The notes: generated from the letters alone by a model not told the origin. A stretch of 12,445 bases of DNA from a virus (IMGVR_UViG_3300045988_104734:1-12445), one strand, 5' to 3'. Counted from the first letter of the stretch, positions 1 to 12,445 are shown. A program made the numbers and translations.

Positions 1-77
1 CACTCTGTACACTTTGCACAAATAGGAAGCCTCCCCTTTGTGCATATTGTACACATTGCACAAAAAGGGAGGCGGTT
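1..77. repeat. Left terminal inverted repeat (perfect 77 bp; imperfect similarity continues to about 111)
   Basis: Bases 1-77 are the exact reverse complement of 12369-12445. The first mismatch is at position 78 versus 12368. The ITR contains internal direct and inverted repeats. Confidence 0.97.
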
Positions 78-93
78 GCCAGATTGTACAAAT

Positions 94-111
94 TTGGTCA
101 GGTTGACATGC
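94..111. repeat. Subterminal conserved box TTGGTCAGGTTGACATGC (left copy)
   Basis: 17 of 18 bases match the reverse complement of 12320-12337, which lies outside the perfect ITR. The box contains TTGACA. It abuts the stop codon of the tail fibre gene at 112. Confidence 0.8.
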
Positions 112-765
112 TTATGCTGTGTAATAGGTCAGATCGAAAATTAACATACCCTGTGGAACAGTCGAGATCGTTCCAGACTCGACGCTGACTACATTATTCT
201 CGATCTTCGTCTTAATGCGAGTTGTCCCGCTAAGCAGCCCCCAGCCGAAAGCTGTTCCGACGACGCTGTGCGGGAGAGTGGCGACCGGTGTCCAATACTC
301 GGAGCTTTTGCTTGAAAGTGTGGCGTCGATGAAAAACGTAGCGGTATGTCCGGACACGATTGAATAGCACAGAGTGACATTTATTAAATGGTCGGATGGA
401 GTTACATTTGCCACGGTCGGAGTGAGCGAATTTTCAACCGCGATTCTCGCGTTTTCCGCTCTCACCGCATCCGCATTAGCGAGAGCAGCAGCGGCCGCGG
501 CCTCGGTCGCGTCCTTTTCAGCCTCCGCAGCACTGGTCGCCGCGTTCTCTTTCGCGGTGTTGGCCTCGCTCGCCGAAGACTGCGCGGCAATCGCGGCGGC
601 CTGCGCCTCATTGACTTTCTGCATGACCTGCTCAATGATGTCGGGCGTGAGCTGCTGCAATGCCTGAATAACCGCCGGGTCGATGCTCTTAATAATAGAG
701 ATGATCCAGTCGAGATTAATGTCGTGCAGATTAGTGTATGGGAAAAGATGATTAAAGATTGCCAT
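112..765 (-). CDS. Tail fibre / receptor-binding protein (217 aa)
   Basis: The N-terminus FPYTNLHDINLDWII matches the NLDWI-type anchor motif I recall from Firmicutes phage tail fibres. An Ala/Glu-rich predicted coiled coil follows, then a beta-rich C-terminal domain. It is the last gene of the structural module. AAAGGAG lies upstream of the ATG at 765. Confidence 0.6.
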   Translation of the reverse strand: MAIFNHLFPYTNLHDINLDWIISIIKSIDPAVIQALQQLTPDIIEQVMQKVNEAQAAAIAAQSSASEANTAKENAATSAAEAEKDATEAAAAAALANADAVRAENARIAVENSLTPTVANVTPSDHLINVTLCYSIVSGHTATFFIDATLSSKSSEYWTPVATLPHSVVGTAFGWGLLSGTTRIKTKIENNVVSVESGTISTVPQGMLIFDLTYYTA

Positions 766-1504
766 TTTTGCCTTTCTCCTTTTTGTAAATTTCGTTCACA
801 CGATTTTGTACAAGAGAGTAGAACCAAGCGCCGAGCTTTTCTTTCCGGTCGAGGCCGTTTGACCACTTTCCGTCGATCACGTCTCGCGCGATGTTCTCGA
901 TGTCGATCACCAGCTTTTCAGGCTCTGCGCTCGGCTCTTCGAGCTTAAAAAGGTTAATGTCGAAAATGAGATCGAGATCGAGGGGATCGCCGCGGTATTG
1001 ATGCATGACCGCCTCGCCGGTCAGATCGGGAAAATTAATTCCGTCGTTCCATCCCCACGCGGCCACCCAGCGCGGAAGCTCGTCCGCAAGGATTTTCGTG
1101 TCGAACCATGACTGCGACGCATAAACGCCAGAGAACAGGCCGCGCGCCCTCATGCAGCCGCAGAACTCGCGGCACATAAGCGTGATCGAGTCAGGGAATC
1201 CGTGTTTGCGCTTGAAATTGTCGGAGTCCTCCATGTCGAACCAGACGCCGAGAGGCGGGACTTTTCCGTTGAGAAACTTGATGCAAGCGCCCGCTTCGGC
1301 GGCCGCTTCCTTAACGGTCAATGCGTAGGAATACCAGTAAATGCCCCAAGGGATTCCGATCTTTTCAGCTTGCGCCACGAACTCATACGCGCAGCGGTCG
1401 ACAGTCTCCGAAAAACCGCCGCGGATGATGACGAACTCCGGGGAATGATCGGCGATCTTAAAGGATTTTCCTTGATGCTCGGAAATATCGATTCCTTTTA
1501 ACAT
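752..1504 (-). CDS. Endolysin: GH25 muramidase catalytic domain plus one C-terminal CW_7 (Cpl-7-type) cell-wall-binding repeat
   Basis: The N-terminus MLKGIDISEHQG is the GH25 signature, and an acidic FDMEDSD segment follows. The C-terminus IARDVIDGKWSNGLDRKEKLG...LVQNRVNEIY fits the CW_7 consensus. RBS GGAGG lies 7 nt upstream of the ATG at 1504. Confidence 0.9.
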   Translation of the reverse strand: MLKGIDISEHQGKSFKIADHSPEFVIIRGGFSETVDRCAYEFVAQAEKIGIPWGIYWYSYALTVKEAAAEAGACIKFLNGKVPPLGVWFDMEDSDNFKRKHGFPDSITLMCREFCGCMRARGLFSGVYASQSWFDTKILADELPRWVAAWGWNDGINFPDLTGEAVMHQYRGDPLDLDLIFDINLFKLEEPSAEPEKLVIDIENIARDVIDGKWSNGLDRKEKLGAWFYSLVQNRVNEIYKKEKGKNGNL

Positions 1505-1515
1505 GCTCTTTCCTC

Positions 1516-2064
1516 CTAATAAACCAGCAGACAGAAACGGCGCTGAAAGCTGTCGATGATAACGTCATACACGCAATAATCAACGATCTTTCGCTGCTCT
1601 TCGATCATCTGCTGCGATGTTGTGACGCCGATGTTGCCGCGAACGAGGCCGACGTGCTTGCTGCTCGATTTTCCGGAGCTGCTGCCGCCGCTCTCGCTGC
1701 CGTCAGAAGTCACAAGCTCTTGCGAGTTGTAACCGGCCTGTTTGCCGGTCGCAGTGCTTGTCGCCGTGCTGCTGCCCTCGCTGTCGTCCGTCCATTCCTC
1801 ATGTCGGTCGTAGTTAGAGATCGGGTCATATTCATAGTGGAGAGTCTTTTCAAGCTCCTCCCATTTGTCAACCTCGGCCTTCGACCAAGCGCCTATTGCC
1901 TCGCGCATAAATTCCGCGTTCGGGTACAGGATTTCGAGCTCCGCACATTCCATGAGCAGATTGTCGATAAGCGTCTGTTTATCCAGCGCGGCCGGGATTT
2001 TGAAGAAGTCGAAAAGGCCTTTGTTCGCTGTCCACAGTCCTAACAGGCTCATCGTTGCGCTCAT
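1516..2064 (-). CDS. Putative lower collar / head-tail adaptor (phi29 gp11-like), 182 aa from ATG 2064
   Basis: It sits immediately after the portal gene, as in phi29. LHYEYDPISNY and the C-terminal GNIGVTTSQQMIEE resemble remembered phi29 gp11 segments (LNYEYPYHP; IGTTQSAMYG). The start at 2064 was chosen because GGAGG lies 10 nt upstream. The ORF-track start at 2133 would overlap the portal gene by 155 nt. Confidence 0.5.
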   Translation of the reverse strand: MSATMSLLGLWTANKGLFDFFKIPAALDKQTLIDNLLMECAELEILYPNAEFMREAIGAWSKAEVDKWEELEKTLHYEYDPISNYDRHEEWTDDSEGSSTATSTATGKQAGYNSQELVTSDGSESGGSSSGKSSSKHVGLVRGNIGVTTSQQMIEEQRKIVDYCVYDVIIDSFQRRFCLLVY

Positions 2065-2941
2065 CGTTTTCATACCTCCAATCAACAGAAATTTTGAGAT
2101 CGGGGAACATTTTCCGGACGCGCTCGCAGTCATCCTGCAACTGTTCGAGCCACATTCCCGAGCGCGAGAACGTCTCTACGTTGTTTGCGTTAACCTCGTC
2201 TGTGGTCAACCGCTCGCGTTTGGTGATGTTAGCGTTTGGGATGCCGATCTCGGTACAGAACTGGTTTTCGAGCGCTCGCATATCGTCAAAGATTTTCGTT
2301 GCGATGTAGTTTTGCCCGACGTTCTGCGAAAATGTATACCAAGCGTTTTTACCGTCCGGCGCTTTAAGACGAGTGTCGAGAACGACCGCCGGATCGCCCT
2401 GCTGAATTTGATCGTAGAGCTTTTTGAACGTCTCGGCCGCTGCTTTGTTTCCGGCGGCGAACACGTAGGAAAGTTTGCTGTTCAACATGTTCATGCCCGC
2501 CGCCTCGCTTGCAATGGCGAGCTGGTCGGCGTAGTAGGAAACAAGGTCGCCTATACCCATCCAGTCAGGTGTGAGCCGGATAATCTCACAGTCAATGCCG
2601 ATAGTGAACGGATTTGAAATGTCCGGCAGGATAGGATTTGCGACAATGAACTGTGAGGGCTGCATAAAAACGTTGTAGCCGCTGACGCCTCCGAGCTGGG
2701 GAATAACGCCGAATTTCTTCGTCGGCACGATTCCGACATATCCCCAATAAAAGAGGCCGTAGAGGAAATAATTCTTTGCCCAATTGAGCGGCATTTTCCA
2801 GCGGAAAACCGACATTGCTTTCTGTAAAAGGTATCGCTCGAAAAAGCTGTGAAGCGCCGTGTTGCGAACGTGCACTGTCGATGGTGATGTCGAGCCGGAA
2901 ACGGCGTTAATTTGCCGGTAGGAATAGGGCGGATTTGTCAA
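1979..2941 (-). CDS. Portal (upper collar/connector) protein, phi29 gp10-like, about 320 aa
   Basis: EIGIPNANITKRERLTTDEVNANN...SRSG...ISVDWRYE closely parallels remembered phi29 gp10 [23 protein letters not shown]...ESSG...VKVKFRYD. The N-terminal PYSYRQINAV resembles NTYRSINEIQ. The likely start is TTG at 2941, which has GGAGG 9 nt upstream and overlaps the upstream TGA as TTGA. An alternative ATG lies at 3001, and the ORF track extends to 3070. Confidence 0.9.
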   Translation of the reverse strand: MTNPPYSYRQINAVSGSTSPSTVHVRNTALHSFFERYLLQKAMSVFRWKMPLNWAKNYFLYGLFYWGYVGIVPTKKFGVIPQLGGVSGYNVFMQPSQFIVANPILPDISNPFTIGIDCEIIRLTPDWMGIGDLVSYYADQLAIASEAAGMNMLNSKLSYVFAAGNKAAAETFKKLYDQIQQGDPAVVLDTRLKAPDGKNAWYTFSQNVGQNYIATKIFDDMRALENQFCTEIGIPNANITKRERLTTDEVNANNVETFSRSGMWLEQLQDDCERVRKMFPDLKISVDWRYENDERNDEPVRTVDSEQRPFRLLQNPGRAG

Positions 2942-3480
2942 AGTCTGCCACCTCCAAATTTGAAAAGTAACCACGCGGGGATTTTGAAAAACGCTTCCCA
3001 TGCTCGCGCATAGGAAATTCTTGTGTTCTGCGTCGCCGGGCCGGGATCGGCCGGGTGCTCGTAGAACCACAACCAGTATTTTGTGAGAACGTCAACCGGC
3101 AGACTGGACACAAGGAACTCTGAGAGAGTGATCGGCGGGTCAATGCCGAGCTCGGCGTTTCTGAACCATTGCAGATCGTTTACTGCCTCGAAAGAAATTC
3201 GCTGCATCTGGGCGTTGCCGTTGTTTTCCCAGCCGTCGCCCCACCATTCGGAGTATTTTGTGTATGGCGTCCATTGTGTCAGGCCGTAACCTCCGGCATA
3301 CGGTGTTAAATTCTCCCATATGCCGGGATTGATGCCCGATTCTGCCTGAATATTTCCGAGCATGGCGAAAATTGCGTTGCTGCTCCAACCGATGGACAGG
3401 CCGCGTCCGCGAAAGACGCGCGCGTTGTTCTGCATTTCGGTTGTTGATAGGTATCGGTTTCCGGCGATCCAATCACTCAT
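2938..3480 (-). CDS. Tail-associated peptidoglycan hydrolase (phage tail lysozyme, phi29 gp13 N-terminal-domain-like)
   Basis: LGNIQAESGINPG...GGYGLTQWT is the GNxxxES...G(L/I)xQW signature of the phage tail lysozyme family. The gene is embedded between the tail knob and portal genes. Its start overlaps the tail knob stop by 8 nt. Confidence 0.85.
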   Translation of the reverse strand: MSDWIAGNRYLSTTEMQNNARVFRGRGLSIGWSSNAIFAMLGNIQAESGINPGIWENLTPYAGGYGLTQWTPYTKYSEWWGDGWENNGNAQMQRISFEAVNDLQWFRNAELGIDPPITLSEFLVSSLPVDVLTKYWLWFYEHPADPGPATQNTRISYARAWEAFFKIPAWLLFKFGGGRL

Positions 3481-4906
3481 AATACGCCCCGTTCATCAAC
3501 ATTCTGTTGATCGAATCGCGCTCCGCGTCGGTGCGGCCTCCGGAGAACTGCGGCGAGGCGATCTCGACATAGCCGGGAACGTCAGAAATTTTCCGCACCT
3601 CACAAAGCGGGCGGCCTATTTCGTCGTTGTTCTGCGCGGCGATCCGCGAGAACGTGCCGGTGAGACGCACAGGGAAATAGCCTGCGGTGTATGTCCCGTT
3701 TGATCCGAGAGATTGCAGCGGAGATACTTTCGATAGCATATAAGCTCCGACGCCTTTTGCGACGGTCATAAAGGTATTTTCGAGACGGTCAATAACATTC
3801 CCTTGCGGATTGTCGAACTTTACACCAAGCAATGAACTAACGCCACTTTCAAGAGCTTCGGCACCCGCGGCAATAAGGCCCATTGAGGAGTTAGCGATTT
3901 GTACAGGCACGCCGATTTGAGAGCGCAGCACGTTACAATATCCGAACGTTGTTGTGAGAGCGTTAGCGCCGATACGTAACGATCCCTCGCCTGTGATGCA
4001 GTCAACTGTCCATTGAAAATCGAGGAGATCGCAATCAACCAAAGCGGCGGCCGGGACAGTCACGGCCCCGAACGGTTGAAAATCAAGATAATACTGTGAG
4101 TACGGCTCGGAAAGTAGCCAATAACCGCGCGTCAATGCGTCCGGGTGTTTGGGAACTTTGATTGTCAGCGTGCCGCCGGATCGAACCGTCTGTGATAGTT
4201 TTTTCGCGCTCGCCGAGACCTCCCACCATCCGATGGGGATCGTCGTCACGTCGCCGCTCGTTGGCGGCTGTACCGGAATCCAGATACACGAGGAAATGTA
4301 GCTGAACGGATTAAACAGGACTTTTGTCAACTGCTCGGAAATCTCGGCAATGTCTCCGAGATAGTCAGTTGACGAAAGGAGCTTTGCCGAGAACGCGCGA
4401 AATTGCGCATCCGTCATAACGTAGTAGGACACGGCCCCGACGCTGTTTGCGTCGTTATTGATGACTCCCACCACGTAATAACCATTTGCAATGCTCGATG
4501 CAAAGGGGTTGTTTGTGTTCGTTTCGACCGCATACGTAACACCCACCTCCGATACCGCCGCGGGATCGGGAATGCGGCCATTATGCGCAGTGCTCGACCG
4601 GTTAATCATGCATGTCATTTCTCCAATCTCCGAGCGGTATGTGCCGAGCACGTCAACGGCGAGATCGACCTCCCAGAGTCCGCGCAGAAATCGCCAATTC
4701 TCCACGAAATAAAAGCGGTCAAACTCGACGATACGCGCATACCCAAGATTTTGCGGATTGATCGGAGGCTTTAATAGAATCGTGGGCCGGAGAAGACCAG
4801 AGCCGTCCAACAGCTCACAGGAAAATTCTATGTCTGCAAGATCGCCGGGAATTTTGGTCGAATTTGTTCTTTTCGGGAACGTGTAAAATTTAACCGTATA
4901 GGACAT
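3473..4906 (-). CDS. Tail knob / distal tube protein (phi29 gp9-like), 477 aa
   Basis: It follows the capsid gene, as gp9 follows gp8 in phi29. The N-terminal block YARIVEFDRFYFVENWRF...LAVDVLGTY parallels remembered gp9 YIMFQNADYGNKWFYAFV...FEIDVLQTW. RBS GGAGG lies 5 nt upstream of the ATG at 4906. Confidence 0.75.
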   Translation of the reverse strand: MSYTVKFYTFPKRTNSTKIPGDLADIEFSCELLDGSGLLRPTILLKPPINPQNLGYARIVEFDRFYFVENWRFLRGLWEVDLAVDVLGTYRSEIGEMTCMINRSSTAHNGRIPDPAAVSEVGVTYAVETNTNNPFASSIANGYYVVGVINNDANSVGAVSYYVMTDAQFRAFSAKLLSSTDYLGDIAEISEQLTKVLFNPFSYISSCIWIPVQPPTSGDVTTIPIGWWEVSASAKKLSQTVRSGGTLTIKVPKHPDALTRGYWLLSEPYSQYYLDFQPFGAVTVPAAALVDCDLLDFQWTVDCITGEGSLRIGANALTTTFGYCNVLRSQIGVPVQIANSSMGLIAAGAEALESGVSSLLGVKFDNPQGNVIDRLENTFMTVAKGVGAYMLSKVSPLQSLGSNGTYTAGYFPVRLTGTFSRIAAQNNDEIGRPLCEVRKISDVPGYVEIASPQFSGGRTDAERDSINRMLMNGAYYE

Positions 4907-4917
4907 GACAACCTCCT

Positions 4918-4960
4918 ATAAAAGATCGCGCGGCGGGCATATCGGTCATCCGCCGCGCGA
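4918..4960 (-). terminator. Intrinsic terminator or attenuator downstream of the major capsid gene
   Basis: A perfect 11-bp GC-rich stem (4926-4936 pairs with 4950-4960) encloses a 13-nt loop. On the minus strand it is followed by UCUUUUAU. It lies in the 64-nt gap between the capsid stop and the tail knob start. Confidence 0.7.
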
Positions 4961-4970
4961 CCCATGAGCA

Positions 4971-6146
4971 CTAATCGAGCGTGAAAACGACCGCGTTCTC
5001 CGTGAAGTCGTTCCAGTAACGATCCTGGAAGTTCCAGAACGTATTAGCGTAACGACCGCGGGGATTCCAAATCGAGCCGACGTCGTAGTTGCAGACGGAA
5101 ATTCCGGCCGCCTCTTCGTCCATGAGCACCGCGAACACGTTCGCAACGTCCACCTTTTCCGCCTCCGTCGTGATCGTGCCGTCGGCCGCCAGATAGGACG
5201 GCAGCGCGGAAACAGCGTCCGGCGTCTTGATCGACTGCCAGAAGTTGACGATCTCGTTGGACGCGTCGCGGATATAATTCTCGTGATAGGTGTCCGCGAG
5301 CACGCGCGCCTCCGTCTCGAATTTCGCGGGCGCGTACATGAACACTTTCTGTCGGGCCATCGGCGTATGACGGATGAAATTCCCGGCCGTGATGTTCGTG
5401 TGGAAATCGATGCTTCGCTCGGTCATCAGAGACGAAATAGAGGCAATGCGCGCATATACCCACTTCATAAACGCGGGGAATACGTCAGGCGCATGAACGG
5501 TCGTTGCGGTATACTTGCCGCCGGTCGCGGCGTTGTACTCTGTCAGAAGATGGATATTCTGCTGCGCGTTCGCCTGTTTCGCGATACCGGCAATGAGGTT
5601 TGCCATAGTCGCGCGGGCCGTCGTTTCATGATCCTGTTCGATCTGGTCGGACACATTCTGCATCTGTCCGGCGATGAACGATGCAAATTCATCCGGCGAC
5701 GTGAACGCCGCGTCGAGCTGATCGCGGAAAACAGTGGTCTTGCGCTCATAGTCGGTGCGCCCATAGAAATTCGTCTGGATGATTTTGGGCTTGCTCACGT
5801 TGAACGGATCGACGCTCGCGGCGTCTGCCGGAGCGAGACCCGCGTCGTCGACGGGATCGCTGTCCAGATAGTTGATCTTTCGGACGTGGTTTCCCCACTT
5901 CCGAGAATCCACGAACAGGCCGCCGAACTTGCGGGTATACGGCCGCACGGAAAAGATCGTGCGCGCGAGCACCTGCGAAATCGCGTTCATGGCGGGCTCG
6001 TAGCCGGTTTTGAGCAGCGTCTGCCCGACACTGACGAATTCGCCAGTGTTGATCGGAGACTGGACGCTATGTCCGGTCGCCTGATGCAGCATTTCGGCGA
6101 GAGTCGCCGAGAGCTGCACAAATTCAAGATTGTTCACATTGGGCAT
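4971..6146 (-). CDS. Major capsid protein (phi29 gp8-like HK97-fold), 391 aa
   Basis: The C-terminus SIWNPRGRYANTFWNF...FTENAVVF parallels remembered phi29 gp8 TVRNPRGLYWNYYYHV...FANAVAF. The gene sits directly after the scaffold candidate with a TAATG stop/start overlap. There is no Ig-like C-terminal extension. Confidence 0.85.
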   Translation of the reverse strand: MPNVNNLEFVQLSATLAEMLHQATGHSVQSPINTGEFVSVGQTLLKTGYEPAMNAISQVLARTIFSVRPYTRKFGGLFVDSRKWGNHVRKINYLDSDPVDDAGLAPADAASVDPFNVSKPKIIQTNFYGRTDYERKTTVFRDQLDAAFTSPDEFASFIAGQMQNVSDQIEQDHETTARATMANLIAGIAKQANAQQNIHLLTEYNAATGGKYTATTVHAPDVFPAFMKWVYARIASISSLMTERSIDFHTNITAGNFIRHTPMARQKVFMYAPAKFETEARVLADTYHENYIRDASNEIVNFWQSIKTPDAVSALPSYLAADGTITTEAEKVDVANVFAVLMDEEAAGISVCNYDVGSIWNPRGRYANTFWNFQDRYWNDFTENAVVFTLD

Positions 6147-6592
6147 TATTTTTTCTCCCCTCCATTAATGAGATTTGTGAGATATGCCTCCGCGATCTCT
6201 CCCGGAGACTGCGGCGGCGTTTCGCGCGAGATGGTCAGAATGTTGTGCTGCTGCACCGCGCCCAGCAGCTCAGCGATCTTCTGATTGATCGCTGCGAGCT
6301 CTGGATTTGCCGGAGCAGCCGGAGCAGCCGGAGCAGCCGGAGCAGCCGGAGCAGCCGGAACAGCCGGAGCAGCCGGAGCAGCCGGGGCTGTGGGAGCAGC
6401 CGGAGCAGCCGGAGCAGCCGGAGCCGCCGGAGCAGCCGGAGCAGCCGGAGCCGCCGGAGCAGCCGGAGCCGCCGGAGCAGCCGCCGGAGCAGCCGGAGCA
6501 GCCGGAGCAGCCGGGTCCGGTGTCAAAAGCCGCTCGATGAATGCCGCGGAAAATCCCGCGTCAAGCAGTTTGTTTACATCTTCGAGATTCAT
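6146..6592 (-). CDS. Putative scaffolding protein with central (PAA)n linker (148 aa from ATG 6592; the ORF-track GTG is at 6601)
   Basis: It lies immediately upstream of the capsid gene and is translationally coupled to it, like phi29 gp7. It has helical N- and C-terminal segments. The central region holds about 23 Pro-Ala-Ala units. Function is inferred from position only. Confidence 0.45.
   Translation of the reverse strand: MNLEDVNKLLDAGFSAAFIERLLTPDPAAPAAPAAPAAAPAAPAAPAAPAAPAAPAAPAAPAAPAAPTAPAAPAAPAVPAAPAAPAAPAAPAAPANPELAAINQKIAELLGAVQQHNILTISRETPPQSPGEIAEAYLTNLINGGEKK
6309..6515. repeat. Tandem 9-bp repeat (GCCGGAGCA)n, about 23 units, in-frame within the scaffold candidate
   Basis: The repeat is directly visible. 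Units are mostly identical, with a few single-base variants (gccggaaca, a ggggctgtggga segment, gccgccgga) and one 12-nt unit. It encodes PAAPAAPAA on the minus strand. Confidence 0.97.
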
Positions 6593-6597
6593 GTTGT

Positions 6598-6951
6598 TCA
6601 CTCTTCCTTTTCGTGATTTCCGTGATTGCTGTCAAAGAATTTGCCGAGAATGTCCGCCGCTGCGGGGGAAAGTTTGCGGATGTTCTCCAGGATGCTGCCG
6701 ATCTCCATCAATACGAGATAGGAAGCCGCGACCATAACCAGATCAACCGGGAGCTCGATATTGACGAAAGGCGCGAACTTGTCGCACATCACCGCCAGGC
6801 CGAGAGCTGCCAGCTCGCCCACTTTGTTAAACAGTCCCTCGCGCATGATCGCGCTTTTGAACTGCTTGTTTTTGAGAGCCGCGAGCAGACCTGTGAGAAG
6901 ATCGCCGAGAATGAACGCAAGAACGATGCAGCAGACCAGTGTCACATTCAT
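6598..6951 (-). CDS. Holin (phage_holin_4 / TcdE-like family), 117 aa
   Basis: It has three hydrophobic segments (VTLVCCIVLAFILGDLLTGLL; ELAALGLAVM; LVMVAASYLVLMEIGSIL) and a charged C-terminal tail. The LGDxxTG N-terminal motif is typical of this holin family. A strong RBS, GAGGAGGTG, lies 7 nt upstream of the ATG at 6951. Confidence 0.85.
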   Translation of the reverse strand: MNVTLVCCIVLAFILGDLLTGLLAALKNKQFKSAIMREGLFNKVGELAALGLAVMCDKFAPFVNIELPVDLVMVAASYLVLMEIGSILENIRKLSPAAADILGKFFDSNHGNHEKEE

Positions 6952-6979
6952 TTAACCACCTCCTCACCGGTCGAATTTC

Positions 6980-7008
6980 AACATACCAAAACATAATAAG
7001 AAAAGGAA
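6980..7008 (-). promoter_or_regulatory. Candidate late promoter with extended -10 (TTCCTT, 17-nt spacer, TGgTATGTT)
   Basis: On the minus strand the -35-like TTCCTT is at 7008-7003, the TG extension at 6988-6987 and the -10 TATGTT at 6985-6980. This places it about 30 nt upstream of the holin start. The match to consensus is weak. Confidence 0.25.
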
Positions 7009-7080
7009 CACAAGTGTCTGCCCCGACCGAGAGCATGGACGCGCTTTCCGGGCGCTGGTCTTGTCCCTTGTGTTCCTCTT
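6989..7080 (-). other. Long compound hairpin plus U-tract in the ATPase-holin spacer (terminator or structured RNA)
   Basis: On the minus-strand RNA, AAGAGGAACACAAG (7080-7067) pairs with CUUGUGUUCCUUUU (7014-7001) for 14 bp including one G-U. The stem encloses 52 nt with further GGAC/GUCC, GACC/GGUC and GCGC/GCGC pairings. UUCUUAUUAUGUUUU follows. Confidence 0.6.
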
Positions 7081-7109
7081 CATTATCATATCACCTACCG
7101 CTACTGTTG

Positions 7110-8129
7110 TCAAGTGGCAAGTTTCCGAAAGAATGCCTTTGCCGCCAAATTCGAGAACGAAAGCCGCTCGTCAATGAAAGCGAGCCAGAAAATTTTAAGA
7201 TACCGCGCGCGGAAACTCGCCGCCGCCGTCTCGCCGTTGCCCAGATTGACCGGGTGGCCGAACGAATGTTCCGTGATATGAAACTCTGCGGTACCTTTCA
7301 CGCCGCAGAACGTATAACCGCCGACTCTGACGATAGGCTTTAATTGCTTGAGATCGCGCGAACGAATATTCGATACGTCGGTCATCACAAATTCATTGTC
7401 AAGCGCCATTGCCGAAAAATCGCCCTCTCCGGCAACACGATAGAGCGCTGTGTCCCTCTTCTTCTGCGAGATCGGGGATTTTGTCAGGGAAATAACACAG
7501 ATTCCGCGCGCGTCGTCCGTCCACATTTCCCGGCCGGAAGCAAAGGCTCTCCGCACATTGTCCGCGATTCCGAGCGTGAGAAAGACAGGGTTCGCAAGAT
7601 CGCCGCTGTTTGACAGACAGATCATTTTCAGAGGTTCGCGGCCGTCAAGCTCTCGGTTTCGGTTCATTGTCTCGTATGCGTTCAGAAATGCGAGGCCCTC
7701 ATTTCGGATTTGCGTTTCGTGAGGTTCGGGGATGAACTCGTCATAAATGCAGTATTTCGCCGCCGAAACGTCAAAGCCTCTCACGTTGGCGATGGCCGTT
7801 AACGCTAACATGATGCAGCGCAGATCGCCGCGCGCTCCCTCCGTGCTCTCCCAAACGCCGACAGCATTTCGAGAAATGCCGTTTTGCTCAAACTCAATTC
7901 CGCGATCTCGACAGAATGGAACGAACGGCGACAGCTCTTTTCGGCTGATCGCGTCAAGCTGCGTCTGTCTCCGTCGCATGAAAACAAACTCGCCGCCGCG
8001 TTCCCAAGCCTCCGAGATCGCGCCGTATGTCTTGCCGGTCGCTCGGCCTCCTACGACCATTATAAACGGATAGGACAAATCGAAAATTTCTTTAAAATCG
8101 GGATAGCCGTCTTTTTTAAAAAGTTTCAT
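7110..8129 (-). CDS. DNA encapsidation (packaging) ATPase, phi29 gp16-like, 339 aa
   Basis: Walker A is VVGGRATGKTYG, compared with remembered gp16 VIGARGIGKSY. Walker B is CIYDEF. The size matches gp16 (about 330 aa). RBS GGAGG lies upstream of the ATG at 8129. Confidence 0.9.
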   Translation of the reverse strand: MKLFKKDGYPDFKEIFDLSYPFIMVVGGRATGKTYGAISEAWERGGEFVFMRRRQTQLDAISRKELSPFVPFCRDRGIEFEQNGISRNAVGVWESTEGARGDLRCIMLALTAIANVRGFDVSAAKYCIYDEFIPEPHETQIRNEGLAFLNAYETMNRNRELDGREPLKMICLSNSGDLANPVFLTLGIADNVRRAFASGREMWTDDARGICVISLTKSPISQKKRDTALYRVAGEGDFSAMALDNEFVMTDVSNIRSRDLKQLKPIVRVGGYTFCGVKGTAEFHITEHSFGHPVNLGNGETAAASFRARYLKIFWLAFIDERLSFSNLAAKAFFRKLAT

Positions 8130-8140
8130 GTTTCCTCCTA

Positions 8141-8169
8141 TAAGAAAAGCGCCGGATTTCTCCGGCGCT
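8141..8169 (-). terminator. Intrinsic terminator at the replication-module / packaging-module boundary
   Basis: A perfect 9-bp stem AGCGCCGGA/TCCGGCGCT (8148-8156 pairs with 8161-8169) has a 4-nt loop. On the minus strand UUUUCUUAU follows. It fills most of the 48-nt gap between the 120-aa ORF stop and the ATPase start. Confidence 0.8.
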
Positions 8170-8177
8170 CTGCGCTG

Positions 8178-8540
8178 TCAGCGGACGACGCTGCATGTGA
8201 TAAAGTCGCGGCCGGTCTTGCCGCTCACGCTGCGAACAACGGCCACACGATCAAGCGTCTTTCCCATCTGGGTAAACAGCTCAACCATCTTGCGGAAGTC
8301 GCGGATAAAGTAGGGGCTGTTCGTCACGTAAACGCGATCATCCTTGCCGAGAATGGAGAGGTTTTCGCGGACTTCGCCGGTCTTCTCGGAAACGTCGTCG
8401 TAAAAGACGGCGGTCTCGATCTCGATACTCTCAACCTCCACAGTCTTCCTGATCGGTACGGCGCTGGAATCGGAGGTCAGCAGCCAAACCTCTTCAGGGG
8501 AAAGCTCTTTGTTCGCGGGGTAAATTTCGTTGATTTTCAT
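8178..8540 (-). CDS. Hypothetical protein (120 aa), possibly an ssDNA-binding protein of the replication module
   Basis: The ORF lies directly after the polymerase. AAAGGA lies 9 nt upstream of the ATG at 8540; the ORF-track start at 8564 is a TTG. The alternating beta-like pattern and size resemble small phage SSBs such as phi29 p5, but I recognise no diagnostic motif. Confidence 0.6.
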   Translation of the reverse strand: MKINEIYPANKELSPEEVWLLTSDSSAVPIRKTVEVESIEIETAVFYDDVSEKTGEVRENLSILGKDDRVYVTNSPYFIRDFRKMVELFTQMGKTLDRVAVVRSVSGKTGRDFITCSVVR

Positions 8541-8560
8541 GTCGGGGCATCCTTTCTTTT

Positions 8561-10624
8561 TCAAAATGTCCGAGATTTCCTTTTCGTCCCGGTACGTATA
8601 GTATAGCGCAATGTTCGCACAATGTCAACGGCAAAATGAGGATTTCCCAAAATAAGCGAATAGTCACCGGCAAGCCCCAATTCGTATGTCGTAGGTACAA
8701 GGCATGTGTTTTTCGTCACTTTCCACACTTTTCCATTTTTCGCCGTGTAATTCCAATCTCCGGCGATATGGTCATTATGAACGGCGGCGAGCTTTCCGGA
8801 ATCGGAAAAAACAAAACCCTCTCGAAATGCTGCAAGGCCGCCTTTCGCCGCAAGCTCGGCGCTTCCCGCTTTTTTAGGTACTCCCGCAATTGTTATTTCG
8901 AGATCGCCTTTCTGATCGATAGCCGCGTATTTTTTCGCGCCCATAGTGACAAACTGCTCGGCGGTTTCCTCGCCCTCGAACACTCCCATAAAATGCTCGA
9001 CGCCGGAAGGGTCGGTCGCGTACGCACCGCTCTGCATATCGTCGGCGATGCACTGATCGTTAAACAATGTAAAATCAAGATCGCCTACATATTTAACACA
9101 GTCAGTGTCGCAGTAGACAAACTGACTTCCCGCAATATCGATTCCCGTCTGCAATGCGTCTCTCGCCCATGCGGTCACCCAGACACCCCAAGCGTAGGAG
9201 AGAAAAGCGCTTTTGTTCGCTCGCAGAAGCTGATCCTCCGGCCGCGCGTCTGTCAGTGCGAATTGCCGGTCAGACTTCGGGCAGTATTTCCACTCGGCCC
9301 GCACGGGATCGGTTGCCATCATGCCATAAATCGCATTTAACTTTCGCTTTGACTTCGCATATAGAACCTCTTGACCTTTTACATTTTTCAGCTCGGTCTT
9401 TTTTCGATAATAGTCAAGGCAACAATCAATAATCGGCTGTGGAAGCGCGCCATATTGGGCATATCGTAGATCGCCAATCTCGACACTTTCCCAAGCATAT
9501 TGTCGCTCTACGATCTTCCAATCTACATCGGTCAATGTCGTTTCGAGCGAGGCGGCCCGCAGAATGCGGCCGTTATCCTTTATCGGCCGCGAAATGTCCC
9601 TGCATTTTGAATGCGCGAGGTACGGGCAGCCGGTCAAAGGGTCGCGCAGCTCGATATTGATGAACCTCGCCCGAAAAAGACATGCTCTGTGATGCTTGTC
9701 AATCAGCCGCCGCAGCGTCTTTTCGTCACTGGTGAGGCTTTCGCAAAACGGCGACATTGGGAAAGGTCGGTTGCAAATGACGTCTGGATAAGAGCTCGAC
9801 CGGTCGCAGGATTTAACGTCGACGAGAATCATGTTTGCATAAAGCCTGTTTGCGTGAGTATTGCCGCCTCGGAACGCCTCTCGGAGCAGGACATAATCCT
9901 CCCAACCGGGGGCGAGATAGCGATACGATTTCCCAGCTTTCCGCAGAGCGGCGCGCACATCGCGCCGGACGTAGCCGGTGGACGTGAGCGGCAACGTGTG
10001 CAGCGTGTCGCCGTCGTGCCGCATCTCTGCACGAATCGCTTCCACCAAACCAAGAACATCGTGAACTGCATAGGCAATCTCACTTTCGGAGAGCTCGGTG
10101 TCCGGCAGACGAAAAACCGAATAATCGAAGTCATGCAGCTTTGCGTGTTCGACGCGCATTTCCTTTAGAAAAGCGTCAAGCGAAAGGTTACTGTGAATAT
10201 AGGAACAACGAAATTCGACAAAGCCGCACATGTCAGCCTTTGCCACCTTTCGCGGCTGGAGGGCGAATACATCATCAGGGCCGAAATCAAAAACGCCAGA
10301 AAGAAATTGGAACTCGTAGGAAAGATTGTGAACAAACACCACCAGCCATGTTTTTTCCTGCATAGCGGCCTTTGCAATAGCTATGCAGTCTTTGAACTCT
10401 TCCCACGTCCGGCCGACGATCACATCGCTCTCAAAAGCCCATTGCCACACATACATTATCGATTCCTCCGTGTCGGGTATCCGGGAAGTCTCGATGTCGA
10501 AAGCGCTCACCACGTCGACATACTCGCGCTTGACCTTTACATTTCCCGGATGCTCGACACGTTCAACTGTCACATGATCGACAATTGCCTGTTTCGCGGC
10601 GCGCGTCCCTGCCGCATAAATCAT
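8561..10624 (-). CDS. Protein-primed family-B DNA polymerase (687 aa from ATG 10624; the ORF-track GTG at 10657 gives 698 aa)
   Basis: Exo I is FDIET, Exo II is HNLSYEF and Exo III is YAVHDVLG. Motif A is DRSSSYPD (Dx2SxYP), motif B is KRKLNAIYG (Kx3NxxYG), motif C is YCDTDC and the KxY motif is GAKKYA. GGAGGAAAGGA lies upstream of the ATG at 10624, which sits 2 nt after the upstream TAA. Confidence 0.95.
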   Translation of the reverse strand: MIYAAGTRAAKQAIVDHVTVERVEHPGNVKVKREYVDVVSAFDIETSRIPDTEESIMYVWQWAFESDVIVGRTWEEFKDCIAIAKAAMQEKTWLVVFVHNLSYEFQFLSGVFDFGPDDVFALQPRKVAKADMCGFVEFRCSYIHSNLSLDAFLKEMRVEHAKLHDFDYSVFRLPDTELSESEIAYAVHDVLGLVEAIRAEMRHDGDTLHTLPLTSTGYVRRDVRAALRKAGKSYRYLAPGWEDYVLLREAFRGGNTHANRLYANMILVDVKSCDRSSSYPDVICNRPFPMSPFCESLTSDEKTLRRLIDKHHRACLFRARFINIELRDPLTGCPYLAHSKCRDISRPIKDNGRILRAASLETTLTDVDWKIVERQYAWESVEIGDLRYAQYGALPQPIIDCCLDYYRKKTELKNVKGQEVLYAKSKRKLNAIYGMMATDPVRAEWKYCPKSDRQFALTDARPEDQLLRANKSAFLSYAWGVWVTAWARDALQTGIDIAGSQFVYCDTDCVKYVGDLDFTLFNDQCIADDMQSGAYATDPSGVEHFMGVFEGEETAEQFVTMGAKKYAAIDQKGDLEITIAGVPKKAGSAELAAKGGLAAFREGFVFSDSGKLAAVHNDHIAGDWNYTAKNGKVWKVTKNTCLVPTTYELGLAGDYSLILGNPHFAVDIVRTLRYTIRTGTKRKSRTF

Positions 10625-10626
10625 GG

Positions 10627-11226
10627 TTATTCGTCCTTTCCTCCGGTCTCTACCCACAAATAGAACGCATCTTCGAGATCTTCTTGTGTGCTGTACTTTC
10701 CGGAATTGTCGTCGAAAAAATCCGCGATTTCCGGCGAGCCAATGCGAAATCCGCGCGTCGTTTCTCGCGCAAACTGCATAAAGCGGTCGAAATCTGGGTA
10801 TGTTCCCTCGTCGACGAAATCTCCGGCCGCCTCGCGTGCTTTCCTGACATTACGCTCGAATTTTCGGCGAGCGCCGTAAACGGTACTCTCTTCTTTTGTG
10901 AGAAACGACCGCAGCCCGGCCAAATTTCCAGCGAGAGCGGTTGACGATTTGCCTATTTCTTTCAGCGTTGGAAAGCCTGTCGAAACCGCATCCTTGACGT
11001 TCTCCAAACGCTTAAGCAGCGGATCGGCTTTCAAGCGAACAATGCGCTTTTGCGCGATATTGCGGAGGCGGGTGTACTCTCGGCGCAGGTCTTTTTCGCT
11101 GATTTCTTCCTTGCCCAGCTTGACCAAAAGAGCATAGGGTGTGTACTGCTCGACCGGAAGATTAAACTTTACCGGCTTTGGTTTCGGCGGCAGACGGCCG
11201 CCGGTCTTTGAAAATTTACTCGACAT
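10627..11226 (-). CDS. Candidate terminal protein (199 aa from ATG 11226)
   Basis: It lies immediately upstream of the protein-primed polymerase and is coupled to it, as phi29 gene 3 is to gene 2. It has a basic N-terminal half (KPKPVK, REYTRLRNIAQKRIVRLK) and an acidic C-terminal domain (DFFDDNSGKYSTQEDLED). There is loose resemblance to remembered phi29 TP segments (EYARLVKNTKAKIARTK; EEFDSEGNT). The 258-aa ORF-track version overlaps the upstream gene and has an implausible Cys/Arg/Trp-rich leader. Confidence 0.55.
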   Translation of the reverse strand: MSSKFSKTGGRLPPKPKPVKFNLPVEQYTPYALLVKLGKEEISEKDLRREYTRLRNIAQKRIVRLKADPLLKRLENVKDAVSTGFPTLKEIGKSSTALAGNLAGLRSFLTKEESTVYGARRKFERNVRKAREAAGDFVDEGTYPDFDRFMQFARETTRGFRIGSPEIADFFDDNSGKYSTQEDLEDAFYLWVETGGKDE

Positions 11227-11485
11227 TGAAATGCACGACCTCCCAATTCTCGCAAAGAATGCGTTTCGCTGACAATCTGATCTGTCGCTTGGGCACCATC
11301 TCCATATTTCGCAGCAGGACGAGGCGGCCGTCTTCGGTCTTCTTCGCTGCGTAATAGTTGCCGTTTTCTCGCCATGTTGCACAATATGCCGGAGCGTCCG
11401 CAAGGAATTTCATCATTTCCTGTAAAGTCTCCGGAGAGAGCGGCGCGCGCTCTCTCCGGTATCCTCGATATTTCGTGCTGTCCAT
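11216..11485 (-). CDS. Hypothetical early protein (89 aa from ATG 11485; alternative ATG at 11497)
   Basis: The ORF ends 11 nt into the terminal-protein candidate. A GGTGGTG Shine-Dalgarno-like sequence precedes the ATG at 11485. The upstream part of the 160-aa track ORF is Cys/Arg-rich and overlaps the preceding gene. I recognise no family. Confidence 0.55.
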   Translation of the reverse strand: MDSTKYRGYRRERAPLSPETLQEMMKFLADAPAYCATWRENGNYYAAKKTEDGRLVLLRNMEMVPKRQIRLSAKRILCENWEVVHFNVE

Positions 11486-11618
11486 ATTCACCACCATCCA
11501 AAAATTTTTCCGAGAACCACAGCCCGCAGAGCGTCGGCAATGCATAGAAGGGCATTCACAATCGCGCTCTCCGCGCAGTCGTCCATGACAAACAGCCGCA
11601 ACATGAAATAGATAACGC

Positions 11619-11843
11619 TCATAAGCAGAACCTCTCAACATTCTCGAAAAATCTGCGATCTCCGAGAAAGGTGTCAAGATCGACCAGAACCTCGCCATTC
11701 GGCCCGTTGATAATGATCGATAGATCGCCGGTTTGCAGCTCTTCGTAAACTGCCCGACCGAAACATCTGTTTCCGGTCTCAGCGCATAAAGTCATCCGAG
11801 CCTTGCCGTATTTCCGCACTCTCTTAATCGTACGTTTCGACAT
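11619..11843 (-). CDS. Hypothetical early protein (74 aa from ATG 11843; alternative ATG at 11864)
   Basis: AAAGGAG lies 11 nt upstream of the ATG at 11843. The N-terminus is basic (KRTIKRVRKYGKAR), so it could bind nucleic acid. I recognise no family. Confidence 0.55.
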   Translation of the reverse strand: MSKRTIKRVRKYGKARMTLCAETGNRCFGRAVYEELQTGDLSIIINGPNGEVLVDLDTFLGDRRFFENVERFCL

Positions 11844-11864
11844 GTTTTGTCCAACTCCTTTCAT

Positions 11865-11918
11865 TTAGCCTTTGCCTGCGAGATCGAGCCCGCGGTTGTC
11901 GATGATTTCAAATTTCAT
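11865..11918 (-). CDS. Possible 17-codon micro-ORF (MKFEIIDNRGLDLAGKG)
   Basis: AAAGGAA lies 8 nt upstream of the ATG at 11918. The stop TAA directly abuts the ATG at 11864 of the next ORF (TAAATG). It is too short to judge from composition. Confidence 0.25.
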   Translation of the reverse strand: MKFEIIDNRGLDLAGKG

Positions 11919-11966
11919 TTCAATTTTCCTTTCTGGGCGATTTGGCCGTCGCCCTCGGCTTGTCTC

Positions 11967-12254
11967 TCACTTTCTGCTTGACGCTCTCGCGTTCTGGCGA
12001 ACCGCCGTCACATCGCTATATTCGCCGCTTTCGATGATGTTGAGCAACGCTGCGATCTTCGCCTCGGCTTTGTTGCGCGCCTCAATCTTCTCGGTGCTGC
12101 ACCAAAGGCGAAGATTGCCAGTTTCATTTTCTTTCCCTCTAAAAGAGGTGTGCACAGTGAAAAGCATTTTCCCATTCCTTTCTGCATGCCGCTCGTCGTG
12201 GCGATCTTCGAGCACTGGCAGAACCTGCCTCGACCACCGGATCGCCTGTCTCAT
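11967..12254 (-). CDS. Hypothetical first early protein (95 aa from ATG 12254; alternative 66-aa form from ATG 12167 with AAAGGAA RBS)
   Basis: This is the first ORF inside the right end. The ATG at 12254 lies 6 nt downstream of a perfect TATAAT, which implies a possible leaderless start. Third-codon-position G/C bias continues through the N-terminal extension. I recognise no family. Confidence 0.5.
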   Translation of the reverse strand: MRQAIRWSRQVLPVLEDRHDERHAERNGKMLFTVHTSFRGKENETGNLRLWCSTEKIEARNKAEAKIAALLNIIESGEYSDVTAVRQNARASSRK

Positions 12255-12260
12255 AATGCA

Positions 12261-12307
12261 ATTATACGACAAGCACCACGTGCAATTGTGAACAAATTGT
12301 TAACAAT
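12261..12307 (-). promoter_or_regulatory. Candidate early promoter (-10 TATAAT at 12266-12261) with upstream tandem operator-like palindromes
   Basis: Reading the minus strand gives ATTGTTAACAAT (a 12-bp perfect palindrome, 12307-12296), then TTGTTCACAAT (12295-12285), then CAATTG, CACGTG and finally TATAAT. No good -35 hexamer lies at 16-18 nt spacing. Confidence 0.45.
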
Positions 12308-12319
12308 GTAGCGCAGCCT

Positions 12320-12337
12320 GCACGTCAACCTGACCAA
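12320..12337. repeat. Subterminal conserved box (right copy; GCACGTCAACCTGACCAA on the plus strand)
   Basis: Its reverse complement, TTGGTCAGGTTGACGTGC, matches left-end 94-111 at 17 of 18 positions. The right arm carries an extra 13 nt (cggctgtgcatgt in inward orientation) between the box and the ITR. Confidence 0.8.
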
Positions 12338-12368
12338 ACATGCACAGCCGAATTTGTGCAATCTGACA

Positions 12369-12445
12369 AACCGCCTCCCTTTTTGTGCAATGTGTACAAT
12401 ATGCACAAAGGGGAGGCTTCCTATTTGTGCAAAGTGTACAGAGTG
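12369..12445. repeat. Right terminal inverted repeat (perfect 77 bp)
   Basis: It is the exact reverse complement of 1-77. Confidence 0.97.

Follow-up and report, generated by a model that had tools for sequence, protein, structure and literature searches.

A conserved structured RNA at the head of the late operon in a phi29-like human-gut phage lineage, a possible short counterpart of prohead RNA

Prohead RNA (packaging RNA, pRNA) is essential to the DNA packaging motor of phage phi29 and is widely used in RNA nanotechnology. In the searchable literature, pRNA has been reported only from Bacillus phages (PMC5066667, PMC11476376, PMC12670572). A 2024 survey (Evseev et al.) sorted more than 2000 phi29-like sequences into about 30 clusters, including one represented by a 12,323-bp human-metagenome genome with a guanine-plus-cytosine (GC) content of 53.5% (PMC11476376). 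Here, we describe IMGVR_UViG_3300045988_104734:1-12445, a viral stretch of 12,445 nt (GC 53.3%; the whole stretch is referred to as the window), and within it a structured RNA of ~82 nt that lies between the packaging ATPase gene and the holin gene, at the head of the late operon.

The window resembles phi29 (Salasmaviridae) in being linear with inverted terminal repeats (ITRs) and in encoding a family-B DNA polymerase, a p5-type single-stranded-DNA-binding protein (SSB), a gp16-type ATPase, the capsid protein, a gp10 portal, a gp9 knob (by structure), a gp13-type lysozyme and a holin, together with an RNA of prohead-RNA topology. Whereas phi29 has 19.3 kb, two transcription directions and a 6-bp ITR, the window has 12.4 kb, one direction and an ITR of 77-79 bp. 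Homologues of phi29 p4, p6, head fibre and gp12 were not detected in the window, in line with an earlier reading of the same sequence (the original prediction), which had found no head fibre and no large gp12-type appendage. That prediction had also taken 17-20 kb as the size of phi29-like phages, a premise that is out of date: GenBank contains cultured phi29-like phages of 10.4-12.3 kb (Astrithrvirus, AD70P2/P3, Phanie, DU_PP_III and Vibrio K58 g2), and AD70P3 and C. innocuum phage CI644P2 are likewise unidirectional or nearly so.

Three groups of relatives are used for comparison below. The cultured Amedibacillus phages AD70P2 and AD70P3 (Guelinviridae according to NCBI) are nearly unidirectional, with genomes of 12.2-12.3 kb, and share with the window a backbone of a ~200-amino-acid protein, polymerase, small genes, ATPase, a gap, a small gene, capsid, a knob-sized gene and portal; their gap after the ATPase gene likewise contains a promoter and a three-way-junction fold. 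Identities to the window are 36% for the polymerase, 30% for the capsid and 30% for the ATPase, and their GC content is 26.7% versus 53%. The CPS1/phi24R group of C. perfringens phages (Guelinviridae) has a unidirectional layout of polymerase, ATPase and late genes like that of the window, and a non-coding gap directly upstream of the scaffold-like and capsid genes, but differs in its size of 19 kb, duplicated capsid gene and gp12-type appendage. The polymerase of the window is at most 36% identical to that of any cultured phage, and its ATPase is ~23% identical to that of CPS1 and 27.7% to that of phi29. Finally, uncultured 12-15 kb gut phages (uncultivated viral genomes of IMG/VR; MT835998, MT836263 and MT838760; clusters of Evseev et al. 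2024) belong to the same clade and share its architecture, mostly with polymerase identities of 48% or less to the window, and none is classified or annotated. In some of these, such as MT835998 (L006) and L035, the replication/ATPase block and the RNA-holin-scaffold-capsid block are on opposite strands, unlike in the window, so the one-strand layout is not universal in the clade.

The locus of interest is a 158-nt non-coding gap at 6952-7109, the sole large internal gap of the window, with the following features in and around it:

7110..8129, minus strand: gp16-type DNA packaging ATPase, 339 amino acids (PF05894)
7085..7113, minus strand: sigma-70-type promoter, TTGACA-17-(TGa)TATGAT (11/12 match, extended -10)
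7000..7081, minus strand: conserved ~82-nt structured RNA (fold and covariance model)
6598..6951, minus strand: holin, 117 amino acids (PF05105)

The original prediction had described a dense layout with every gene on one strand and almost no spacer DNA. All 17 predicted open reading frames (ORFs) are indeed on the minus strand, and 8 of the 16 junctions overlap, but the description overlooked this gap and, with it, the conserved RNA gene at 7000-7081. The -35 box of the late promoter overlaps the ATPase stop codon, and in 49 of 71 distinct relatives the RNA is preceded, at a distance of 5-20 nt, by an equivalent promoter.

The RNA is predicted to fold with a minimum free energy of -37 kcal/mol (z=-3.5). 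Its parts are, in order, a closing helix (P1), a three-way junction, an arm composed of P2a (4 bp), a 7-nt 5' bulge, P2b (4 bp) and a conserved CGGAA-type loop, a P3 hairpin (4 bp with a 7-nt loop), and a U-rich tail. The closing stem carries compensatory changes across strains, and distant relatives share the gap layout. Covariance models, first built on 9 seeds and then rebuilt on the hits that these gave, were searched over the window and 93 relatives. The window itself was matched at 7006-7075 (38.9 bits, E=3.5e-5), and 86 of the 93 relatives gave exactly one significant hit each, in all cases on the strand of the late genes and immediately before the holin/scaffold/capsid block. These 86 hits represent 71 distinct sequences, and covariation statistics were calculated on 66 distinct ones. 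In this alignment, 92% of the cells were paired compared with 55% in shuffles, the covariation score was 0.86 compared with 0.18, and 19 of 20 pairs showed double compensatory changes. Pairing reached 94% in P1, 100% in both P2a and P2b, and 99.6% in P3, and RNAalifold independently recovered the same structure.

A further pairing connects the bulge with the P3 loop, and since it is absent from the model, it constitutes an independent test. In the window, GGUC in the P3 loop is complementary to GACC in the bulge; the corresponding bulge/loop pairs elsewhere include GCACA/UGUGC, AGUCA/UGACU, GUAUCA/UGAUAC and GAAACA/UGUUUC. Across the 66 sequences, 70% of these positions are paired, with double changes in 4 of 5 pairs. 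The longest complementary run averages 4.38 nt between cognate partners versus 2.59 nt between non-cognate ones, a value reached in none of 10,000 permutations. Judged from these alignments, the RNA is an undescribed, strongly conserved structured RNA family. A search of Rfam with the whole window and a lax local search gave nothing relevant, the only matches being chance miRNA-like ones on the long hairpin. Hammerhead and other ribozymes, as well as riboswitches, were considered for the three-way junction and set aside, there being no Rfam match and no conserved junction core. An exact 17-mer of the RNA core had three chance matches in IMG/VR, in unrelated contigs of 25-65 kb, and these were discarded.

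Compared with the pRNA family (RF00044) and with the folds of the phi29, Nf and GA-1 pRNAs, the window RNA has the same overall plan. Both have a consensus promoter of their own, a transcript whose 5' end falls at the start of the closing helix, and paired 5' and 3' ends that lead into a three-way junction. In both, the order from 5' to 3' is C helix, 5' bulge, E helix and loop, and then D hairpin (P2a, bulge, P2b and P3 in the window), and the E hairpin is the part conserved in sequence. The bulge and the D loop are each 7 nt long and complementary over 3-6 nt, with covarying Watson-Crick pairs between the CE bulge and the D loop. We favour, at about an even chance, the reading, drawn by analogy, that the ~82-nt RNA is a shortened counterpart of phi29 prohead RNA, which bridges portal and ATPase. 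By the same analogy, it may form an intermolecular ring on the prohead and bind the portal and the ATPase, although this is hypothetical. The two RNAs also differ: there is no similarity at the level of sequence or covariance model, domain II is absent, the C and D helices of the window RNA have 4 bp, with the C helix measuring 9-11 bp in pRNA, and the A helix of the window family has 9-18 bp without conserved bulges, in place of the long bulged A helix of phi29. The genomic position is different as well, being the head of the late operon in the window and the early region in phi29.

Several observations weigh against a packaging role. The RF00044 model stayed below its gathering threshold on the window RNA, with no match even under lax filters, and our own model R1, run against the phi29 genome with filters off, gave no match at the pRNA. 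In a control, RF00044 found the phi29 pRNA (145 bits) and missed the annotated Nf and GA-1 pRNAs at the gathering threshold; since it misses genuine pRNAs, the curated model is too narrow for surveys, and its negative result is uninformative for a distant pRNA. In addition, the RNA invariably stands first in the late operon, also in genomes that have the ATPase gene at another place; in about one-third of the relatives, the E hairpin has an alternative, covarying partner in the leader that precedes the next ribosome site; and the equal length of P2a and P3 (4 bp) makes an intramolecular pseudoknot feasible.

These last three points also bear on another, somewhat less likely reading: the RNA would be the 5' leader of the late operon and work in cis, whether as an attenuator or as an element of processive antitermination, translational control or mRNA stability. 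It would then time the holin and structural genes from an otherwise constitutive promoter, and the bulge-loop pairing would be an intramolecular pseudoknot. The RNA is directly upstream of the holin/scaffold/capsid block in every genome examined, including L006 and L035, where the ATPase gene is far off on the opposite strand, and the next start codon is just 19-58 nt away. In ~23 of 64 relatives, a stretch of 6-8 nt in the leader, just 5' of the ribosome site, is complementary to the 5' strand of the E helix plus its loop and covaries with them. The complementary run averages 4.34 compared with 2.92 in shuffles, and none of 2000 shuffles was as high; its location just upstream of the next ribosome site points to a cis-regulatory role. 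P2a and P3 are invariably 4 bp, which places the bulge and the loop level with each other, so that they could dock within one molecule. Some clades have a U-run or terminator after the RNA. Only 17 of 71 sequences have a clear U-run, which weighs against a packaging RNA, although one clade has a canonical terminator directly 3' of the RNA.

However, the junction has few conserved nucleotides, unlike ligand-binding riboswitches, there is no match to an Rfam family, and both the topology and the loop sizes are specifically those of pRNA. The phages also carry a gp16-type ATPase, which in phi29 needs pRNA, and the version found in CPS1 is pRNA-like and of full size, its C and D helices differing in length as they do in pRNA. 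The probability left by a packaging RNA and a late-operon leader falls to some other function or to both. As regards the E hairpin, L020, L040, L060, L062, L070, L091 and others contain a 6-8-nt segment, 10-25 nt 3' of the RNA and just before the ribosome site of the next gene, that is complementary to the 5' strand of the E helix plus the E loop and covaries with them. Examples of these hairpin/leader pairs are AGCCGGA/UCCGGCU, CCCCGGAA/UUCCGGGG and CUCGGAA/UUCCGAG, the window having only CCGG/CCGG. This complementarity suggests an alternative pairing or a pseudoknot that touches translation initiation.

The CPS1 version speaks for the packaging RNA. At 6158-6276 of CPS1 (L114) there is a 119-nt non-coding fold (z=-7.4), unannotated in the records, in which bulged A and C helices of 27 and 10 bp, respectively, are followed by a 6-nt bulge, an E arm (4-bp helix, 6-nt loop) and a D arm (4-bp helix, 8-nt loop), GUCA and UGAC being complementary. 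Its dimensions are essentially those of domain I of the Nf and phi29 pRNAs. Our RNA models do not detect the CPS1 RNA. It is 97-100% conserved in phi24R, HN02, cpp, PM11 and CPD2 (blastn found no more divergent copies), and this near-identity leaves no possibility of a covariation test. The RNA candidate in the gap of AD70P3 is also missed by our models, and its fold alone is not significant (z=-1.2). The AD70P3 ATPase has one contig only in IMG/VR, with an identical ATPase, so covariation cannot be tested for the Amedibacillus candidate either.

Beyond the RNA, the window is very probably an essentially complete linear double-stranded DNA genome of an uncultured phi29-like human-gut podophage, whose host is probably one of the Clostridia of Oscillospiraceae type. 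Its ends are as follows:

1..77, no strand assigned: left ITR, putative replication origin (100% complementary to 12369-12445)
12369..12445, no strand assigned: right ITR (independent contigs stop 0-3 nt from the right terminus)

The perfect 77-nt repeat at both window ends, and the completeness deduced from it in the original prediction, were borne out, except that about 2 nt per terminus are probably missing. In self-comparison of the window, the repeat extends imperfectly to ~111 nt. An ENA contig from another sample, assembled with another k-mer size (L004), terminates precisely at window position 1, and a second (L003), 99.99% identical to the window, stops 2 nt short of the opposite end. 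Contigs of related strains start with CCCACTCTG (twice, in independent samples) or ACTCTG. In the sister species (83% nucleotide identity), a perfect ITR of 86 bp, with CCCACCCTGTACA as its first letters, extends to the extreme bases on both sides, and the contig of this species in an NCBI metagenome-assembled genome (MAG) is 4 nt shorter at each end; the homologous position of its ITRs indicates that the ends are real. The 5' ends of L010, L012 and L106 read CCCACTCTG or CCCACCCTG, two C's beyond the CACTCTG of the window. The window thus probably misses two terminal C's per end, which would make the true ITR ~79 bp. The terminal CCC (CCCACCC in the sister species) resembles a short terminal reiteration for sliding-back in protein-primed initiation.

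Each ITR contains three copies of a 24-nt motif, TGTACACwTTGCACAAAwAGGrAG, located in the left arm at 6-29 (+), 30-53 (inverted) and 48-71 (+). A degenerate fourth unit, TTG(C/T)ACAAA, is found just inside the ITR (regions 1-111 and 12335-12445). The ITR is kept across related strains in which the adjoining early genes are wholly different, a pattern that fits an origin or protein-binding function, and the repeated units probably serve to bind a protein of replication or transcription.

It is very unlikely that the contig instead arose as an assembly artefact, is part of a larger or a circular element, or represents a linear phage-plasmid. What could be said for this is that the free ends are deduced here from assembled contigs, that the window seems 2 nt short per end, and that phage-plasmids exist among phi29-like sequences (PMC11476376). 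On the other hand, different assemblers, k-mer sizes and samples yielded the same end bases, and the k-mers used (k127 and k141) are longer than the 77-nt repeat. A full set of replication, virion and lysis genes is present, Pfam and PHROG scans of the window proteins found no partition, toxin-antitoxin or integrase genes, and hundreds of related contigs top out at 12-15 kb, with none above ~15 kb among contigs carrying any searched protein.

The lineage is distinct from the Bacillus, Staphylococcus, Streptococcus and C. perfringens groups, as originally proposed, and unclassified, the closest cultured match being Amedibacillus phage AD70P3 at 36% polymerase identity. Yet it is not new, and the earlier claim of novelty was not upheld. 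The species is found repeatedly in the data of ENA, Logan, JGI and NCBI, including the 99.99% identical ENA contig, and its 90% protein clusters have 659 members for the capsid and 649 for the polymerase. One cluster member, encoded on the 12.8-kb contig of the sister species from an NCBI MAG assembly, is also in NCBI, and the GenBank fragment MT838760 is 87% identical in nucleotides over 4.3 kb. IMG/VR contains more than 440 relatives of 12-15 kb; this clade was reached only with an ATPase alignment, the polymerase as a single query having given one distant locus. The source samples of the species are human gut. The host is probably a Clostridia bacterium of Oscillospiraceae type: the endolysin shares 53-54% identity with proteins from MAGs of Clostridiales and Oscillospiraceae, related phage contigs were binned in Clostridiales MAGs, and the mostly GGAGG-like ribosome sites are in keeping with such a host. 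It counts against the assignment that it depends on endolysin similarity and MAG binning.

The gene content was derived from gene calls on the near-identical ENA contig and our own recheck. The 17 ORFs are free of internal stops, 16 of them begin with ATG, and a clear purine-rich, GGAGG-like ribosome site precedes most of them. Coding density reaches 92.8%, and the ORFs on the plus strand run antisense to genes that are well supported. The remaining features are:

11967..12167, minus strand: early ORF e1, 66 amino acids (gene call on ENA contig L003)
11619..11843, minus strand: early ORF e2, 74 amino acids, with an arginine/lysine-rich N-terminus (gene call)
11488..11622, minus strand: early ORF e3, 44 amino acids (gene call)
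11216..11416, minus strand: early ORF e4, 66 amino acids, overlapping the start of the terminal-protein candidate (gene call)
10627..11226, minus strand: terminal-protein candidate, 199 amino acids (conserved position before the polymerase)
8561..10624, minus strand: family-B DNA polymerase of protein-primed type, 687 amino acids (phrog_1907, phmmer)
8178..8540, minus strand: phi29 p5-type SSB, 120 amino acids (PF17427)
6146..6592, minus strand: scaffold candidate, 148 amino acids (position only; overlaps and is directly upstream of the capsid gene)
4971..6146, minus strand: phi29-type major capsid protein, 391 amino acids (PF25622)
3473..4906, minus strand: gp9-type tail knob, 477 amino acids (AlphaFold2/Foldseek)
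2938..3480, minus strand: gp13-N-type tail lysozyme, 180 amino acids (PF18013)
1979..2941, minus strand: gp10-type portal (upper collar), 320 amino acids, TTG start (PF05352, phrog_2038)
1516..2064, minus strand: lower-collar (gp11-like) candidate, 182 amino acids (position; weak homology)
752..1504, minus strand: endolysin with GH25 muramidase and CW_7 wall-binding repeat, 250 amino acids (Pfam, PHROG)
112..765, minus strand: short tail fibre or receptor-binding candidate, 217 amino acids (weak PHROG tail-fibre matches; last gene of the late operon)

The order given originally (ATPase, holin, scaffold, capsid, knob, gp13-like lysozyme, portal, collar, endolysin and fibre) was right. Polymerase, SSB, ATPase, capsid, knob, portal, tail lysozyme, holin and endolysin were supported by profile or structure, while the terminal protein and the collar lacked confirmation by homology. 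The early ORF e1 had no Pfam or PHROG match. The early region is mosaic (11417-12368 compared with L009, L010 and L106): the window has four ORFs of 44-74 amino acids, and strains with 83-96% identical terminal protein and polymerase have larger, different early genes, e.g., of 160/209/91 or 162/168/88 amino acids. A second near-consensus promoter, TTGACA-17-TATACT (11/12), lies at 8600-8628 (-), inside the 3' end of the polymerase gene and just upstream of the SSB gene. ARAGORN found no tRNA or tmRNA in the window.

The polymerase matched phrog_1907 at 4e-50 and the phi29 polymerase (1XHX/2EX3) by phmmer (E=6e-6) over phi29 residues 144-465, the segment with TPR1 and TPR2. Its motifs A, B and C align with those of phi29 as DxxSLYP, Kx3NSxYG and YCDTD, and its score for Pfam PF03175, 24.8 bits, is just below the cutoff of 25.8. 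The SSB scored 27.8 bits for PF17427 (cutoff 25), with precomputed matches in relatives too. Further matches were obtained for the ATPase (PF05894, 2e-12, above cutoff; phi29 gp16, E=8e-10), capsid (PF25622, 4e-23, above cutoff), portal (PF05352, 1.5e-18, above cutoff; phrog_2038, 1e-31), tail lysozyme (PF18013, 1e-19) and holin (PF05105, 57 bits, above cutoff), and weak ones to PHROG tail fibres for the fibre candidate (2e-5). The 477-amino-acid protein had no sequence match in Pfam, PHROG or further sequence searches; its AlphaFold2 model (39 homologues, mean predicted local distance difference test score, pLDDT, 78.5) matches phi29 gp9 (5FB5; Foldseek E=4e-14, probability 1.0), and by this modelled structure, it is a gp9-type tail knob. 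Residues 339-403 of the model form a 65-residue, low-confidence helical insert, presumably comparable in position to the membrane-active loop of phi29 gp9. In the scaffold candidate, ~23 tandem 9-nt units at ~6305-6513 (-) encode a (PAA)n tract; the length of this protein varies across strains from 111 to 148 amino acids, and one strain has a (TPAP)-like repeat instead.

The 199-amino-acid ORF directly upstream of the polymerase is a candidate terminal protein. Its stop is 2 nt before the polymerase ATG, with translational coupling, and the ORF in this position forms one alignable family across 71 distinct sequences. Ser164, present in 92% of these, is 35 residues from the C-terminus, and the priming Ser232 of the phi29 terminal protein is 34 residues from its own. 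Against this assignment, hhalign comparison with the terminal proteins of phi29, GA-1 and Nf gave a probability of 0.3%, i.e., no similarity. An N-terminal 'EYxRL' string shared with known terminal proteins was seen by eye only and discarded as evidence. The 182-amino-acid ORF is a candidate gp11-like lower collar, located directly after the portal gene, with homologues of 164-198 amino acids that align over their full length and a model with helices and a long, low-confidence central hairpin. This candidate is weakened by an hhalign probability of 11.7% to phi29 gp11, a match to phrog_3225 ('adaptor Ad4') at only E=0.06, and a Foldseek search of the model against the PDB that returned nothing significant.

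By analogy with phi29, the following life cycle may be proposed. The 199-amino-acid protein encoded just upstream of the polymerase would prime replication at both ends, with the ~79-bp ITRs as origins and the repeated 24-nt motifs as likely protein-binding sites, and the phi29-type SSB would coat the displaced strands. All 17 genes would be read in one direction from the right end, beginning with the small early genes and continuing through the terminal protein, polymerase, SSB and ATPase to the late block. A consensus early promoter was sought at the right end and not found, which counts against this scheme. The late block would begin at the consensus promoter overlapping the ATPase stop codon, and its first product would be the ~82-nt structured RNA. 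The gp16-type ATPase would package DNA through the gp10-type portal into a phi29-type prohead, completed by a minimal tail of lower collar, gp9 knob, gp13-type lysozyme and one short fibre, and the holin and the GH25/CW_7 endolysin would lyse the cell.

Such a minimal tail set could also be explained by a helper-dependent, satellite-like podophage comparable to Acinetobacter phage Phanie, which needs the tail of a helper myophage. The very small genome, the one short fibre and the lack of a gp12-type appendage would fit, and Phanie has ~35% polymerase identity to the window (PMC11476376). We nevertheless find this highly improbable: the window has a single full-length gp9-type knob, whereas in the Gram-negative group the knob is split into two genes (PMC11476376), it has a tail lysozyme together with fibre and lower-collar candidates, and the cultured AD70P3, of similar gene layout, is recorded as an Amedibacillus isolate.

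As a genome, the window is one more complete representative of a large, catalogued yet unclassified clade of 12-15 kb gut phages and adds little. The conserved RNA, in turn, opens the long-standing question of whether other phages than those of Bacillus have a pRNA to direct testing: it provides a covariation-supported RNA family, a well-defined location as the first element of the late operon and a cultured test system in CPS1/phi24R. If it proved to be a regulator of the late operon instead, it would still be a new phage RNA family. If the packaging reading is true, the RNA would be a miniature prohead RNA and, together with the CPS1 fold, would show that pRNA is no peculiarity of Bacillus phages. 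Its core could then be reduced to the E and D hairpins together with a 7-nt bulge and a C helix of 4 bp, and pRNA would be an ancestral and widespread component of the gp16-type packaging motor among phi29-like phages, abundant ones of the human gut included.

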